A stretch of 64,000 bases of DNA, from NCBI GenBank assembly GCA_965287045.1, contig OZ336885.1:62806001-62870000 (forward strand). Direction: 5' to 3'. The notes beneath the pieces are model-generated. The model was not told the DNA's origin and did not search any database. It saw only the letters and a list, made by a program, of their open reading frames with translations. Within the stretch, counting starts at the first letter, position 1. Every line of letters starts with the position of its first letter. Origin of the DNA: Carcharhinus amblyrhynchos (Eukaryota). A program made the translations under genes and the position numbers. Below, in pieces: positions 3,234 to 63,676 of this stretch.

Positions 3234-3260
3234 AAGATAAAATAAACGACCGAAAAGACG
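3234..3260 (+). CDS. 27-nt micro-exon, D class, (E)DKINDRKD
   Basis: ttttctatttctttcacag|AAGATAAAATAAACGACCGAAAAGACG|gtatgc; exon and flanks resemble 60034. Confidence 0.75.
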
Positions 3261-63300: not shown

Positions 63301-63676
63301 AATATAAGGTTGCCATAAGCATTGGCTTATTATTGAGTATCTGTTCCAAAAACGTAAGGATTTACATAGCAATAGCAGTGCGGTTGTATGGTAGATACCG
63401 TTGTCCTATTGTGTTGGTTGATTAAAGTCGGCATGGAGTAGAATTTCAAAATTGAATTTGAAAACAAAATAAATTAAACGAATGCCAAACAGTTTAGGTG
63501 TAATTCGAATACGTGGATTCTTACAGGAGCGAAAATGAATGCATCCTCCTCTGTCACAATGACCCTATAATTGAACGAATGTAATGCAGGTGCCAGTAAA
63601 TTCTCCTCAACAAATGTTTCTGGTTTGTTAACCTATCCAGAATTAACCCAGTGTCAAGCAAACTTGAATAATTCAC
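3234..63676 (+). CDS. Internal part of a multi-exon gene encoding a repetitive coiled coil, built from 16 micro-exons (start and stop outside window)
   Basis: Sixteen 27/30/36-nt AG..GT exons, all phase 1-1. Joined peptide: (E)[159 protein letters not shown]. No stops, and the heptad pattern runs across junctions. Confidence 0.8.
4390..4419 (+). CDS. 30-nt micro-exon, shortened C class, (D)KCREDLRHA
   Basis: caatccag|ACAAGTGCAGAGAAGATTTACGTCATGCAG|gtgagc; homologous to the 36-nt Cys exons but the acceptor is 6 nt downstream. Confidence 0.5.
5955..6094 (+). pseudogene. Probable decayed larger coiled-coil exon
   Basis: cacag acceptor, phase-1 frame [46 protein letters not shown] with one stop, followed by gt and a GT repeat. 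Confidence 0.4.
6230..8330 (-). mobile_element. Heavily degraded CR1 LINE spanning the N gap
   Basis: Remnants of CR1 RT C-terminus and ORF2 on the minus strand. Confidence 0.6.
6369..6496. other. Assembly gap (128 N)
   Basis: Run of n. Confidence 1.
8350..8930 (-). mobile_element. CR1 LINE 3' fragment
   Basis: catagaatc.. tail and degraded RT C-terminus. Confidence 0.65.
8985..9130 (+). mobile_element. Degraded tRNA-derived SINE (V-SINE/HE1-like)
   Basis: gttagcactgtc..gtgttcaat..tggagtttgtctgtcctacctgtg core. Confidence 0.5.
9235..9701 (-). mobile_element. tRNA-derived SINE (V-SINE/HE1-like) with LINE-like 3' tail
   Basis: Reverse complement of V-domain ggagaatgtgcgaactccacatagac..gggaatcgtacctggg..actgtgtcacaatgccgtccc. 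Confidence 0.8.
10522..11228 (-). mobile_element. CR1 LINE 3' fragment with (CATAGAA)n tail
   Basis: [42 protein letters not shown]; heptamer tail. Confidence 0.92.
11240..15170 (-). mobile_element. Decayed Harbinger/PIF transposon: nuclease remnant on minus (about 12550-14080), Myb/SANT partner remnant on plus (about 11240-12180)
   Basis: Minus frames [23 protein letters not shown] and WLRDKCCA match HARBI1-type motifs; the plus Ser/Thr/Glu-rich segment resembles 51600-51780; GC-rich subterminal region. Confidence 0.65.
15180..15730. mobile_element. Old CR1 remnants including an (ATGTTCTT)n tail
   Basis: tttcttatgttcttatgttcttat at about 15705-15727. Confidence 0.5.
16451..16477 (+). CDS. 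27-nt micro-exon, K class, (E)NLLKEKEK
   Basis: tccatcacag|AAAACCTGTTGAAGGAAAAAGAGAAAG|gtattt; paralog of 29323 and 56889 including flanking intron. Confidence 0.8.
17098..17137 (+). repeat. (GT)n(GC)n microsatellite
   Basis: Direct inspection. Confidence 0.95.
19118..19158 (+). repeat. (GT)n microsatellite
   Basis: Direct inspection. Confidence 0.95.
20890..23047 (+). mobile_element. Old CR1 LINE (about 20890-21645 and 22924-23047) split by a young CR1
   Basis: Degraded RT motif (tccagatttacagatgat, SRFTDD); its 3' tail resumes after the young insertion. Confidence 0.7.
21647..22923 (+). mobile_element. Young 5'-truncated CR1 LINE, RT domain to 3' tail
   Basis: [29 protein letters not shown] and [14 protein letters not shown]; single TAG at 22414-22416; (ATGTTCTT)n-type tail. 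Confidence 0.97.
23052..23355 (+). pseudogene. Probable decayed large exon upstream of C exon 23749
   Basis: Purine-rich frame [51 protein letters not shown]..; same position relative to the C exon as in other units. Confidence 0.35.
23749..23784 (+). CDS. 36-nt micro-exon, C class, (A)[11 protein letters not shown]
   Basis: atcatgattcag|CCTTAGCCACGTGTCAAGAAGCTTTAATGCAATCAG|gtaagc. Confidence 0.85.
23845..24490 (-). mobile_element. CR1 3' fragment plus V-SINE-like element (about 24310-24490)
   Basis: acaaagaacaaag tail; ccagagcacctggaggaaaccgacgca..ctaccgtgcc SINE reverse complement. Confidence 0.7.
24540..27000 (-). mobile_element. Old CR1 5' part (ORF1 and endonuclease remnants)
   Basis: Minus frame [33 protein letters not shown] resembles the CR1 ORF1 esterase region. 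Confidence 0.7.
26193..26642 (-). mobile_element. Young CR1 3' fragment, same family as 21647
   Basis: [35 protein letters not shown]. Confidence 0.95.
27798..28065 (-). mobile_element. RTE-clade LINE 3' fragment
   Basis: Minus frame [45 protein letters not shown] (C-terminal zinc finger), short 3' UTR ending GACGGACGAACAACACGAAGAAG. Confidence 0.8.
28082..28175 (+). repeat. Two diverged tandem copies of an approximately 45-49 bp unit
   Basis: gtttcccgggtggtcgtctctgtgtcaaacgatttcaggaagacc / gtttcccaggtggtcgattctatgtcaaacaacttcagggagacc. Confidence 0.8.
29323..29349 (+). CDS. 27-nt micro-exon, K class, (E)EHLKEKEK
   Basis: tttcccctgaacag|AAGAACACTTGAAAGAAAAAGAGAAAG|gtactt. Confidence 0.8.
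29540..29765 (+). mobile_element. tRNA-derived SINE
   Basis: A box tggcaaagtgg, B box gtttcgactcc, ttagcactg..cacagcgcca head, aataaa end. Confidence 0.8.
30238..30303 (+). repeat. Imperfect (GT)n tract
   Basis: Direct inspection. Confidence 0.9.
30720..30862 (+). mobile_element. CR1 3' tail fragment
   Basis: aagggatatcggg..gatcagccctgatcttatt. Confidence 0.7.
31181..31209 (+). pseudogene. Decayed D-class micro-exon copy (29 nt, frameshifting)
   Basis: tag|ACGACAGATTGACGGAAAAATTCAGGAAA|gtatgg, DDRLTEKFR; about 950 nt before C exon as for 53581; no pyrimidine tract. Confidence 0.4.
31552..31783 (+). pseudogene. Probable decayed large exon upstream of C exon 32147
   Basis: tag..gtgatc bounded; frame [47 protein letters not shown] with stops. 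Confidence 0.4.
32147..32182 (+). CDS. 36-nt micro-exon, C class, (E)[11 protein letters not shown]
   Basis: atcatgaatcag|AATTAGCCAAGTGCCAAGAAAAATTAAAAGATGCAG|gtaaac. Confidence 0.85.
32570..32813 (+). mobile_element. Young CR1 3' fragment, same family as 21647
   Basis: Near-identical to 22678-22923. Confidence 0.95.
33010..34100 (-). mobile_element. Two old LINE fragments (about 33010-33530 and CR1 about 33575-34100)
   Basis: [23 protein letters not shown] in the minus frame. Confidence 0.65.
34681..34707 (+). CDS. 27-nt micro-exon, K/D class, (E)KKIKQLLE
   Basis: ttttttcttgtcgttaacag|AGAAGAAAATAAAGCAACTACTAGAAG|gtgagt; strong splice sites. Confidence 0.85.
35501..35756 (+). repeat. 67-bp direct repeat (35501-35567 and 35690-35756)
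   Basis: ttctc..gagcagtgtacctggtgg.tgtggtgagtggtt.attttccttggaagttcttcgctgta twice, 4 mismatches. Confidence 0.95.
38242..38400 (+). mobile_element. V-SINE-like body inside the CR1 3' UTR
   Basis: gtctgtgggagtttgtgcattctccctgtggttgtgtgggtttcctccgggtgttctggtttcctcccacacccaaaagatgtg. Confidence 0.85.
39092..40763. mobile_element. Non-autonomous DNA transposon, Harbinger-like (3-bp AAT TSD, imperfect TIRs)
   Basis: aat|GGACCCGATTTACCAA ... TTGGTAAAATCTTACCC|aat; GC-rich interior without a credible ORF. Confidence 0.75.
39981..40122. mobile_element. Fold-back (hairpin) MITE-like element
   Basis: tgatgtggagatgccggtgttgga..caccaggttaaa pairs with tttaacgtggtg..tccaacaccggcatcacctcatca. Confidence 0.85.
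41330..41542 (+). pseudogene. Probable decayed large exon upstream of C exon 41708
   Basis: Frame [41 protein letters not shown] ending at g|gtatgg. Confidence 0.35.
41708..41743 (+). CDS. 36-nt micro-exon, C class, (D)[11 protein letters not shown]
   Basis: ttctgtaatctag|ATTTGGACCAGTGTCAGGAAGCTTTAAAAGATCTAG|gtgagt. Confidence 0.85.
42130..42156 (+). CDS. 27-nt micro-exon, K class, (E)KRLREQEQ
   Basis: ttgcttcctattag|AGAAACGGCTGCGAGAACAAGAACAAG|gtagac. Confidence 0.75.
42491..42517 (+). CDS. 27-nt micro-exon, A class, (A)AEKDAKIK
   Basis: ccttcttcacag|CGGCAGAGAAGGATGCTAAAATAAAAG|gtactt; paralog of 57803. Confidence 0.8.
43030..43310 (+). mobile_element. Degraded V-SINE-like element
   Basis: gcggcatggtac..agctttgcattttccc..caaagatgtgcg. 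Confidence 0.55.
44868..45208 (+). mobile_element. Young CR1 3' fragment
   Basis: [28 protein letters not shown]; (ATGTTCT)n tail. Confidence 0.95.
45268..45300 (+). repeat. (CA)n microsatellite
   Basis: Direct inspection. Confidence 0.95.
46550..47995 (-). mobile_element. Harbinger fragment carrying a decayed Myb/SANT-like gene (about 46570-47150)
   Basis: Minus frames [37 protein letters not shown] and [12 protein letters not shown]. Confidence 0.75.
48113..48151 (+). repeat. (GC)n(GT)n microsatellite
   Basis: Direct inspection. Confidence 0.95.
48995..49166 (+). mobile_element. CR1 3' tail nested in the Harbinger element
   Basis: ggaattaagggttatg..ggaaagtggaactga..ctcgaagggctagatgacctactcctg, same family as 21647. 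Confidence 0.9.
50010..51260 (+). pseudogene. HARBI1-type DDE transposase pseudogene
   Basis: [63 protein letters not shown] and [11 protein letters not shown] across frameshifts. Confidence 0.9.
51420..52530 (-). pseudogene. Harbinger Myb/SANT-like partner gene remnant
   Basis: [17 protein letters not shown]-terminal remnant and Ser/Thr-rich exon [20 protein letters not shown]. Confidence 0.6.
53581..53607 (+). CDS. 27-nt micro-exon, D class, (D)DRICELKA
   Basis: tgccccaaacag|ATGACAGAATATGTGAACTAAAAGCAG|gtatgt. Confidence 0.8.
53860..53918 (+). repeat. (CA)n microsatellite with cacgtata units
   Basis: Direct inspection. Confidence 0.95.
54520..54555 (+). CDS. 36-nt micro-exon, C class with Cys->Trp, (E)[11 protein letters not shown]
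   Basis: ttactttccag|AATTGGCCAAGTGGCAAGAAAGTTTAAAGGATGCAG|gtaaac; close paralog of 32147. Confidence 0.85.
56889..56915 (+). CDS. 27-nt micro-exon, K class, (E)EKLKGKEK
   Basis: ttcgcccttgcag|AAGAAAAATTGAAAGGTAAAGAGAAAG|gttatt. Confidence 0.75.
57803..57829 (+). CDS. 27-nt micro-exon, A class, (A)AISEAREK
   Basis: ttttattgtatttcacag|CGGCAATATCCGAAGCTAGAGAGAAAG|gttcgt. Confidence 0.8.
58050..58329 (+). pseudogene. Probable decayed large exon
   Basis: Frame [22 protein letters not shown] ending at cag|gtatgc. Confidence 0.3.
60034..60060 (+). CDS. 27-nt micro-exon, D class, (D)DTINELKG
   Basis: tttttgctcggaacag|ATGACACAATAAACGAACTAAAAGGAA|gtatgt. Confidence 0.8.
60313..60377 (+). repeat. 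Long (AC)n microsatellite
   Basis: About 32 perfect units. Confidence 0.98.
60780..60995 (+). pseudogene. Probable decayed large exon
   Basis: Frames [28 protein letters not shown] and [27 protein letters not shown]. Confidence 0.35.
62110..62730 (-). mobile_element. Old CR1 3' fragment
   Basis: [20 protein letters not shown] in the minus frame; CR1 tail. Confidence 0.8.
62971..63308 (+). pseudogene. Probable decayed large exon upstream of C exon 63641
   Basis: tttttcccag acceptor; [47 protein letters not shown]; an internal gtgaga at 63010 would give an open 39-nt exon. Confidence 0.4.
63641..63676 (+). CDS. 36-nt micro-exon, C class, (K)[11 protein letters not shown]
   Basis: aacctatccag|AATTAACCCAGTGTCAAGCAAACTTGAATAATTCAC|gtaagc. 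Confidence 0.85.

Follow-up and report, generated by a model that had tools for sequence, protein, structure and literature searches.

The DNA analyzed here is a 64,000-nucleotide (nt) stretch of the Carcharhinus amblyrhynchos genome (NCBI GenBank assembly GCA_965287045.1, contig OZ336885.1, hereafter C16; positions 62,806,001-62,870,000; hereafter, the window). It lies within a predicted plus-strand gene (hereafter, gene A; C16 ~62,217,500-63,068,600), in which an 850-kb array of about 135 phase-1 micro-exons is followed by one B30.2/SPRY exon, and which is probably a single gene for a coiled-coil rod of about 1,400 residues with a C-terminal B30.2 head. About 1.74 Mb of contiguous sequence, window included, was read, and the window's numbering is extended to both sides for positions outside it.

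Splice-site and profile scans recovered exactly the 16 exons of an earlier reading of the window (hereafter, the original prediction), i.e., phase-1 exons flanked by AG and GT on the plus strand between 3234 and 63676, which sum to 480 nt; most were missed by a first, strict splice-site scan. Joined by coordinates, they are free of stop codons in one of the three frames only, as had been claimed. Ten are 27 nt long, five 36 nt and one 30 nt; the last, at 4390, departs from the two predicted sizes and equals a 36-nt exon minus 6 nt in frame, relative to two paralogous copies. Of the recurring classes originally distinguished (C, the Cys class, and K, A and D), K, A and D exons cross-score and form a single 27-nt family. 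The class letters are retained in the following list, where U1, U2 and U3 are copies of a duplicated unit.

3234..3260, plus strand: D3, 27-nt phase-1 micro-exon
4390..4419, plus strand: C3, Cys-class exon of 30 nt (36 nt with a 6-nt in-frame deletion)
16451..16477, plus strand: K2, 27-nt micro-exon
23749..23784, plus strand: C4, 36-nt Cys-class micro-exon
29323..29349, plus strand: K3, 27-nt micro-exon, missing with C5 from the upstream unit U1
32147..32182, plus strand: C5, 36-nt Cys-class micro-exon
34681..34707, plus strand: D4, 27-nt micro-exon
41708..41743, plus strand: C6, 36-nt Cys-class micro-exon, deleted with K4 in unit U1
42130..42156, plus strand: K4, 27-nt micro-exon
42491..42517, plus strand: A2, 27-nt micro-exon, final exon of unit U2
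53581..53607, plus strand: D1, 27-nt micro-exon, opening exon of unit U3
54520..54555, plus strand: C1, 36-nt micro-exon, Trp instead of Cys in this copy
56889..56915, plus strand: K1, 27-nt micro-exon
57803..57829, plus strand: A1, 27-nt micro-exon
60034..60060, plus strand: D2, 27-nt micro-exon
63641..63676, plus strand: C2, 36-nt Cys-class micro-exon

Several exons (those at 3234, 42491 and others) have a second AG 3 or 6 nt inside them, so that frame-preserving acceptor shifts of one or two residues are possible, and GC donors occur at a few array exons.

At a score of ≥18 the window yielded 16 sense and 0 antisense calls, and the whole array 147 sense versus 12 antisense; the exon model was trained on the array's own exons, so these counts favor the sense strand. 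A scan of the gene span by splice score only, with no protein term, peaked at 27 nt (58 sense vs 7 antisense) and at 36 nt (42 vs 3), other lengths giving 0-12. The array begins with a first confident exon 588 kb upstream of the window (-588 kb) and extends to +257.5 kb, which makes the originally proposed scale of ~60 kb too small by about 14-fold. Of the 147 calls, 128 are 27 or 36 nt long; they total 4,581 nt, are separated by a median intron of 3.4 kb and by at most 26 kb, and create no stop at any junction. Allowing for false calls, we estimate about 135 exons and about 1,400 residues, and at the coiled-coil rise of 0.15 nm per residue the predicted rod would be ~200 nm long.

Directly after the last micro-exon, and phase-compatible with it, lies a terminal phase-1 exon of 172 amino acids (aa) plus a stop codon (C16:63,068,075-63,068,595; +262,075), 198 kb beyond the window end. 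It encodes a SPRY/B30.2 domain (Pfam PF00622, E = 1.1e-15, 58 bits vs a cutoff of 26.3), whose best PDB profile matches are the B30.2 of BTN3A1 (E = 1e-31) and BTN3A3, then TRIM7 and TRIM21; its AlphaFold model is weak (pLDDT, the predicted local distance difference test, 60.7) and mostly beta. The 1.74 Mb hold no other B30.2 exon on gene A's strand, and the window exons would be spliced to this one. The analogy that had been drawn with chicken BG and butyrophilin tails is thus borne out by the terminal exon, and of the neighboring parts suggested at the outset a B30.2 exon was found and an Ig-V (immunoglobulin V) exon was not. The array ends in a B30.2 exon with a stop codon and not in the C-type lectin (CD23-like) part that had been envisaged, in an analysis that included no dedicated lectin profile search.

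The exons could be functional and yet belong to several genes, or to an array with internal promoters or poly(A) sites of which only the 3' part joins the B30.2 exon. RefSeq models of relatives are mostly short (175-460 aa), motif and register are different in the 5' third, the array of a neighboring paralog (paralog B, below) contains a leader-like exon, and the single transcript is itself read from genome sequence. We nevertheless consider such a split unlikely, since no terminal exon, second B30.2 exon or strand switch was found between -588 kb and +262 kb, and the calls run on with the gaps and open junctions given above. In addition, a 1,697-aa chimaera model and SPRY-bearing ESM Atlas clusters of 1,277-1,802 aa (sequences not seen) point to long forms, and the short models look truncated, as matching paralogs in this genome run to the edge of the 91-110 kb examined. 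One long transcript is probable for gene A.

The gene grew by duplication of blocks of exons with their introns. Most of one copy of a ~65-kb unit (16 exons, 162 residues) makes up the window; the unit is present as U1, U2 and U3, plus partial copies U0 and U4. Between copies, intron identity is ~85% and exon identity 84-88%, and the ratio of nonsynonymous to synonymous substitution rates (dN/dS) for the three main unit pairs is 1.1, 0.95 and 0.61. All 44 exon copies in U1-U3 keep AG and GT, keep the frame and lack stops. Under neutrality, simulated on a star tree with 8% per branch and with the indel rate of the introns, 11.1 splice losses, 5.1 stops and 3.8 frameshifts are expected, i.e., ~20 lesions, and none of the 20,000 runs was free of lesions. 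Selection thus acts against stops, frameshifts and splice-site loss, and it appears to act on length and register, and much less on sequence. In this respect the view of a genuine, selected micro-exon gene with a continuous heptad pattern was supported, although one of its arguments, that adjacent repeats are heavily degraded, does not hold for all of them. Reverse-transcriptase fragments (Pfam RVT_1) of long interspersed nuclear elements (LINEs) lie at window positions 21,631-22,920 and 36,712-38,400, the first of them 80-98% identical to nearby copies, so that the valid contrast is between the exons and the duplicated introns. A dN/dS near 1 in two of the three unit pairs would agree with chance matches, or with dead exons copied within segmental duplications, but either reading is scarcely credible beside the strand and length bias, the zero disabling lesions and the conservation to catshark and chimaera.

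Four exons are missing from U1 without having decayed in place. A clean deletion took out the counterpart of window positions 39,495-42,321, and nothing in U1 can be aligned to 28,094-32,315; each of the two stretches contains one 27-nt and one 36-nt exon, i.e., 21 residues or three heptads. U0 retains exons at both positions, so the absences from U1 are probably losses. The LINE fragment at 36,712-38,400 also sits in a stretch that is missing from U1. A 7-kb simple-repeat block occupies +119 to +126 kb, where U4 ceases to resemble the other units.

The two exon sizes form heptads only in combination: 9 and 12 residues are not heptad multiples, while 9+12 gives 21 and 9+9+9+12 gives 39, or eleven turns. 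Between -310 and +140 kb, in a curated list (with five lower-scoring exons included and two calls, at -115110 and -4955, removed), 27-nt exons were odd in number in 34 of the 39 gaps between long exons (26 ones and eight threes), compared with a mean fraction of 0.37 in shuffles, none of 5,000 of which reached the observed value. Without curation the rule held in 28 of 48 gaps over the whole gene (0 of 3,000 shuffles) and in 24 of 44 in paralog B (3 of 3,000). Local hydrophobic periodicity at 3.5 residues was 1.07 versus 0.49 ± 0.06 in 500 shuffles of exon order. The significance given by the shuffles is overstated, because duplicated blocks are not independent. In the central and 3' part of the gene, the pair of 27 and 36 nt, i.e., 21 residues, is the unit of gain and loss. 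Among 38 long exons, Leu or Ile stands at position 2 in 36 and Cys at position 5 in 33, and 21 is the commonest Cys spacing (20 of 41 intervals). If the Leu is read as heptad position a, the Cys falls at d, a position at which parallel chains in register could be linked by disulfides.

Gene A belongs to a family with at least eight predicted paralogs in this genome, itself included. Six related B30.2 exons lie on C16 at 60.4-66.4 Mb (that of gene A and five at 36-44% identity) and two on contig C9, and a micro-exon array precedes every one whose flank was examined, a set that leaves aside those of the 60.45-Mb and C9:106.38 exons. Paralog B lies on the minus strand, tail to tail with gene A, from +343 to ~+836 kb; its 113 calls span ~490 kb, and it has a B30.2 exon of its own. 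Its array also contains 15-nt exons, and the leader-like exon at +815 kb, which has an ATG, has further exons upstream of it. Two micro-exon calls were made within the few kb read of paralog D, 33 (plus one antisense) in 110 kb of paralog E, and 29 (plus one antisense) in 91 kb of the paralog at C9:103.96. Paralog C, on the minus strand, was read at the 5' end of its array only, which we infer to be linked to the B30.2 exon at 61.08 Mb; at -750 to -702 kb it holds twelve consecutive 21-nt phase-1 exons (the BG-type size) within a 27/36-nt array.

A tree of 30 B30.2 sequences (midpoint root; paralog E and the long chimaera protein left out) contained a 15-row clade with 100/100 support, apart from TRIM and butyrophilin, in which the domains of this genome join those of catshark, basking shark, epaulette shark, skate, electric ray and chimaera. 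The catshark ortholog of gene A in this tree, XP_038668997, has a B30.2 domain 76% identical to that of gene A, and five of the final micro-exons have counterparts in it that are joined, in order, to this domain; residues 63-118 of the same model match a LINE-type repeat, an annotation artefact. The chimaera protein XP_042192744, labelled nuclear-pore anchor-like, is 1,697 aa long, with nine LxxC[QKRE]-type motifs, a B30.2 of the clade type and a hydrophobic start. The ESM Atlas contains a SPRY-bearing chordate cluster of 1,277 aa (score 0.91) and others of 1,579 and 1,802 aa, which, with scores below 0.9, are leads only. A search with paralog B's B30.2 among longer proteins gave no match, and a search with a skate protein matched only its own cluster. 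The presence of the family and its long form in chimaera does not support the narrowly lineage-specific expansion that had been supposed. In the open-access full-text literature no description of this family was found; the supplements of PMC12841164 may list members under butyrophilin names.

The closest known designs differ from gene A in domain content. In chicken BG, of the butyrophilin family, and the BG-derived zipper protein, as far as the excerpts of these papers go (PMC5938342, PMC8813856, PMC4988538), a coiled coil is likewise encoded by many small phase-1 exons with a split first codon, the exon number varies by block duplication and hydrophobic a/d positions cross exon junctions. 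BG, by the same excerpts, has its own Ig-V and transmembrane exons, 21-nt exons (29-38 repeats) and no B30.2, whereas in gene A no Ig was found, the 27- and 36-nt exons form heptads only when combined, ~135 of them extend over 850 kb, the B30.2 is terminal and Cys recurs periodically. Butyrophilins (BTN/BTNL) share a heptad region followed by a C-terminal B30.2, according to the parts of two papers available to us (PMC8813856, PMC12841164), and BTN3A1 is the best PDB match; they differ in that gene A has no Ig-V, Ig-C or confirmed transmembrane exon, ~200 heptads instead of a short region, and a B30.2 in a separate clade. TRIM-B30.2 proteins also place PRY/SPRY after a coiled coil, but gene A showed no RING or B-box and has a far longer micro-exon coil. 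The micro-exon genes (MEGs) of Schistosoma likewise consist almost entirely of very small exons separated by long introns (bioRxiv 10.1101/2023.06.21.545858); they come from another phylum and encode secreted proteins, no B30.2 is mentioned in the abstract of that source, and the analogy is one of design only. Gene A is, as predicted from its exons, a B30.2/PRY-SPRY domain gene that falls outside BTN, BG and TRIM on the features tested.

Searches for the missing receptor parts were negative. With tblastn, 163 proteins (18 with an Ig-V motif, 46 with RING) matched nothing in 1.66 Mb but the two B30.2 exons and fragments of mobile elements, and in profile searches of the region the best E values were 0.07 for Ig, 2.4 for post-Ig (Ig-C2; a profile built from 22 post-V segments and run without a separate positive control), 0.05 for RING and 0.28 for B-box; motif scans for Ig-V and Ig-C2 exons found none either. 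As a positive control, a butyrophilin-like V domain gave 33 matches genome-wide, mostly on contigs C53, C46, C9 and C12 and none on C16, so that this genome's own butyrophilin-like V exons sit on other contigs. The Ig-V receptor envisaged by the original prediction is therefore not supported in the 1.66-1.74 Mb searched. A true butyrophilin- or BG-type receptor (Ig-V, optional Ig-C, a transmembrane exon) with a hugely expanded cytoplasmic tail, its Ig exon lying farther off or being too divergent, would suit the phase-1 heptad micro-exons with a terminal B30.2, the BTN3A1 match and the one clade member auto-named butyrophilin-like. We regard it as very unlikely given these searches, the upstream space limited by opposite-strand paralog C and a B30.2 outside the TRIM/BTN group. 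Still less can be said for a TRIM gene with an expanded coiled coil, an idea suggested by RefSeq auto-names of relatives (TRIM39/58/69-like and A33-like) and made barely tenable by the absence of any RING or B-box match here, by the five relatives tested, in which only PRY/SPRY rose above noise, and by the separate B30.2 clade.

The space upstream of gene A is bounded by paralog C, which starts near -612 to -622 kb. The best leader candidate, one of two in the region, is a 96-nt exon at -637,446 (C16:62,168,554-62,168,649) with an ATG, a 14-residue hydrophobic run and a phase-1 donor, 49 kb upstream of the first rod exon; it is also the one candidate for a transmembrane exon ahead of the heptads. 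DNA searches with both leader candidates matched only themselves, so they are not repeats, and the searches added nothing in their favor. Two other possible exons, at -607 and -605 kb, were discarded, as they lie within sequence judged by eye to be decayed retrotransposon-like. Hydrophobic starts of skate and epaulette-shark models were not accepted as signal peptides, since the paralogs are much longer than the models and the epaulette-shark start looks like the translation of intron sequence that precedes a micro-exon of the matching paralog in this genome. The chances are about evenly balanced that the predicted protein begins with a short hydrophobic leader, which would be a signal peptide or signal anchor, lacks an Ig domain and is secreted or membrane-tethered.

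Alternatively, the rod could be soluble and cytoplasmic and lack a leader, in the manner of enterophilin or the BG-derived zipper protein; the gene structure would be the same and only the location would differ, and the protein might be a tropomyosin-like or trafficking scaffold with its Cys not oxidised. Guinea-pig enterophilins are Ig-less heptad rods with a long leucine zipper and a C-terminal B30.2, much shorter and mammalian. An interaction of enterophilin with SNX1 is reported. The B30.2 domain is normally cytoplasmic and a soluble BG tail is known (PMC8813856, PMC5938342), and models of the C9-type paralog in electric ray and catshark have no hydrophobic start. Against this reading, a core Cys recurs regularly (33 of 38 long exons), genes A, B and C have leader-like exons close to their 5' ends, and the chimaera model has a hydrophobic start; we consider a soluble rod rather unlikely, though to be taken seriously.

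For the rod we envisage the following arrangement. Two parallel chains would associate, with Leu in position a and Cys in position d at intervals of 21 or 39 residues, giving a disulfide-stapled, length-variable spacer in which length and register matter more than sequence. The rod would hold paired B30.2 heads far from an N-terminal anchor, the heads would be the binding end, and the rod may cross-link or reach a ligand. In a further, tentative proposal, to which we give somewhat less than an even chance, the genes would form an ancient family, shared with chimaeras, of near-megabase genes (at least eight here) for secreted or tethered, disulfide-stapled rods of up to ~200 nm with a divergent B30.2 tip, their length evolving in 21-residue steps by pairs of 27 and 36 nt, i.e., the butyrophilin tail module put to extracellular use without Ig domains.

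Besides the overstated shuffle significance, a number of results speak against the picture of gene A given here. The window junctions are predictions from the genome sequence, and a sequencing run (X1) covers introns and exons alike, mostly at less than 95% identity and with no GT..AG exon-joining joint, so that it is uninformative on splicing. The amino acids are weakly constrained, with dN/dS in the range given above and exon identity equal to intron identity. The register rule fails in the gene's 5' third, where 1 of 9 gaps follows it, and on automatic calls it does not reach significance in two paralogs that were read in part (7 of 12 gaps, 199 of 3,000 shuffles; 3 of 6, 842 of 3,000). RefSeq isoforms of relatives differ by single cassettes of 6, 7 or 9 residues and not by 21-residue pairs, which fits alternative micro-exon use and argues against obligatory in-register pair skipping. 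The leader candidate lies beyond the first exons of opposite-strand paralog C and would overlap that gene; looser leader-like matches are frequent, with 42 rows in the region; the chimaera N-terminus mapped onto the 5' zones gave one 11-residue match without splice context and none at the candidate; and RefSeq N-termini in this family are unreliable, the catshark start being LINE-derived. Finally, butyrophilin B30.2 domains are intracellular (PMC12841164, PMC8813856).

Several Mb of one shark chromosome appear to be held by genes that annotation based on open reading frames or short reads truncates or mislabels as TRIMs, butyrophilins or nuclear-pore proteins. With two exon sizes that form heptads only together, they offer a clean natural system for testing how coiled-coil register is constrained by exon length and phase. 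They also bear on the origin of the butyrophilin/BG tail and the B30.2 module in early jawed vertebrates, and point to a very long protein with a fibrous or recognition role in sharks, rays and chimaeras.

Other features of the locus were noted. A second, older internal repeat occupies -546 to -475 kb, where 42-45-nt exons containing Gly and Pro alternate with 36-nt exons; these are possibly flexible hinges of the rod. At +206,322, outside the three counted units, a 36-nt Cys-class exon has a GG instead of an AG acceptor in this assembly; it is the only damaged copy seen, and may be a decayed exon, an allele or an assembly error. A fragment at window positions 49,800-51,400 is common to the duplicated units; we take it to resemble a Harbinger-type transposase, which a Pfam search, negative here, did not confirm. 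Two similar retrovirus-like elements, labelled by eye, with long open reading frames of up to 808 aa, lie at -153 to -144 kb on the minus strand and at +284 to +287 kb on the plus strand.

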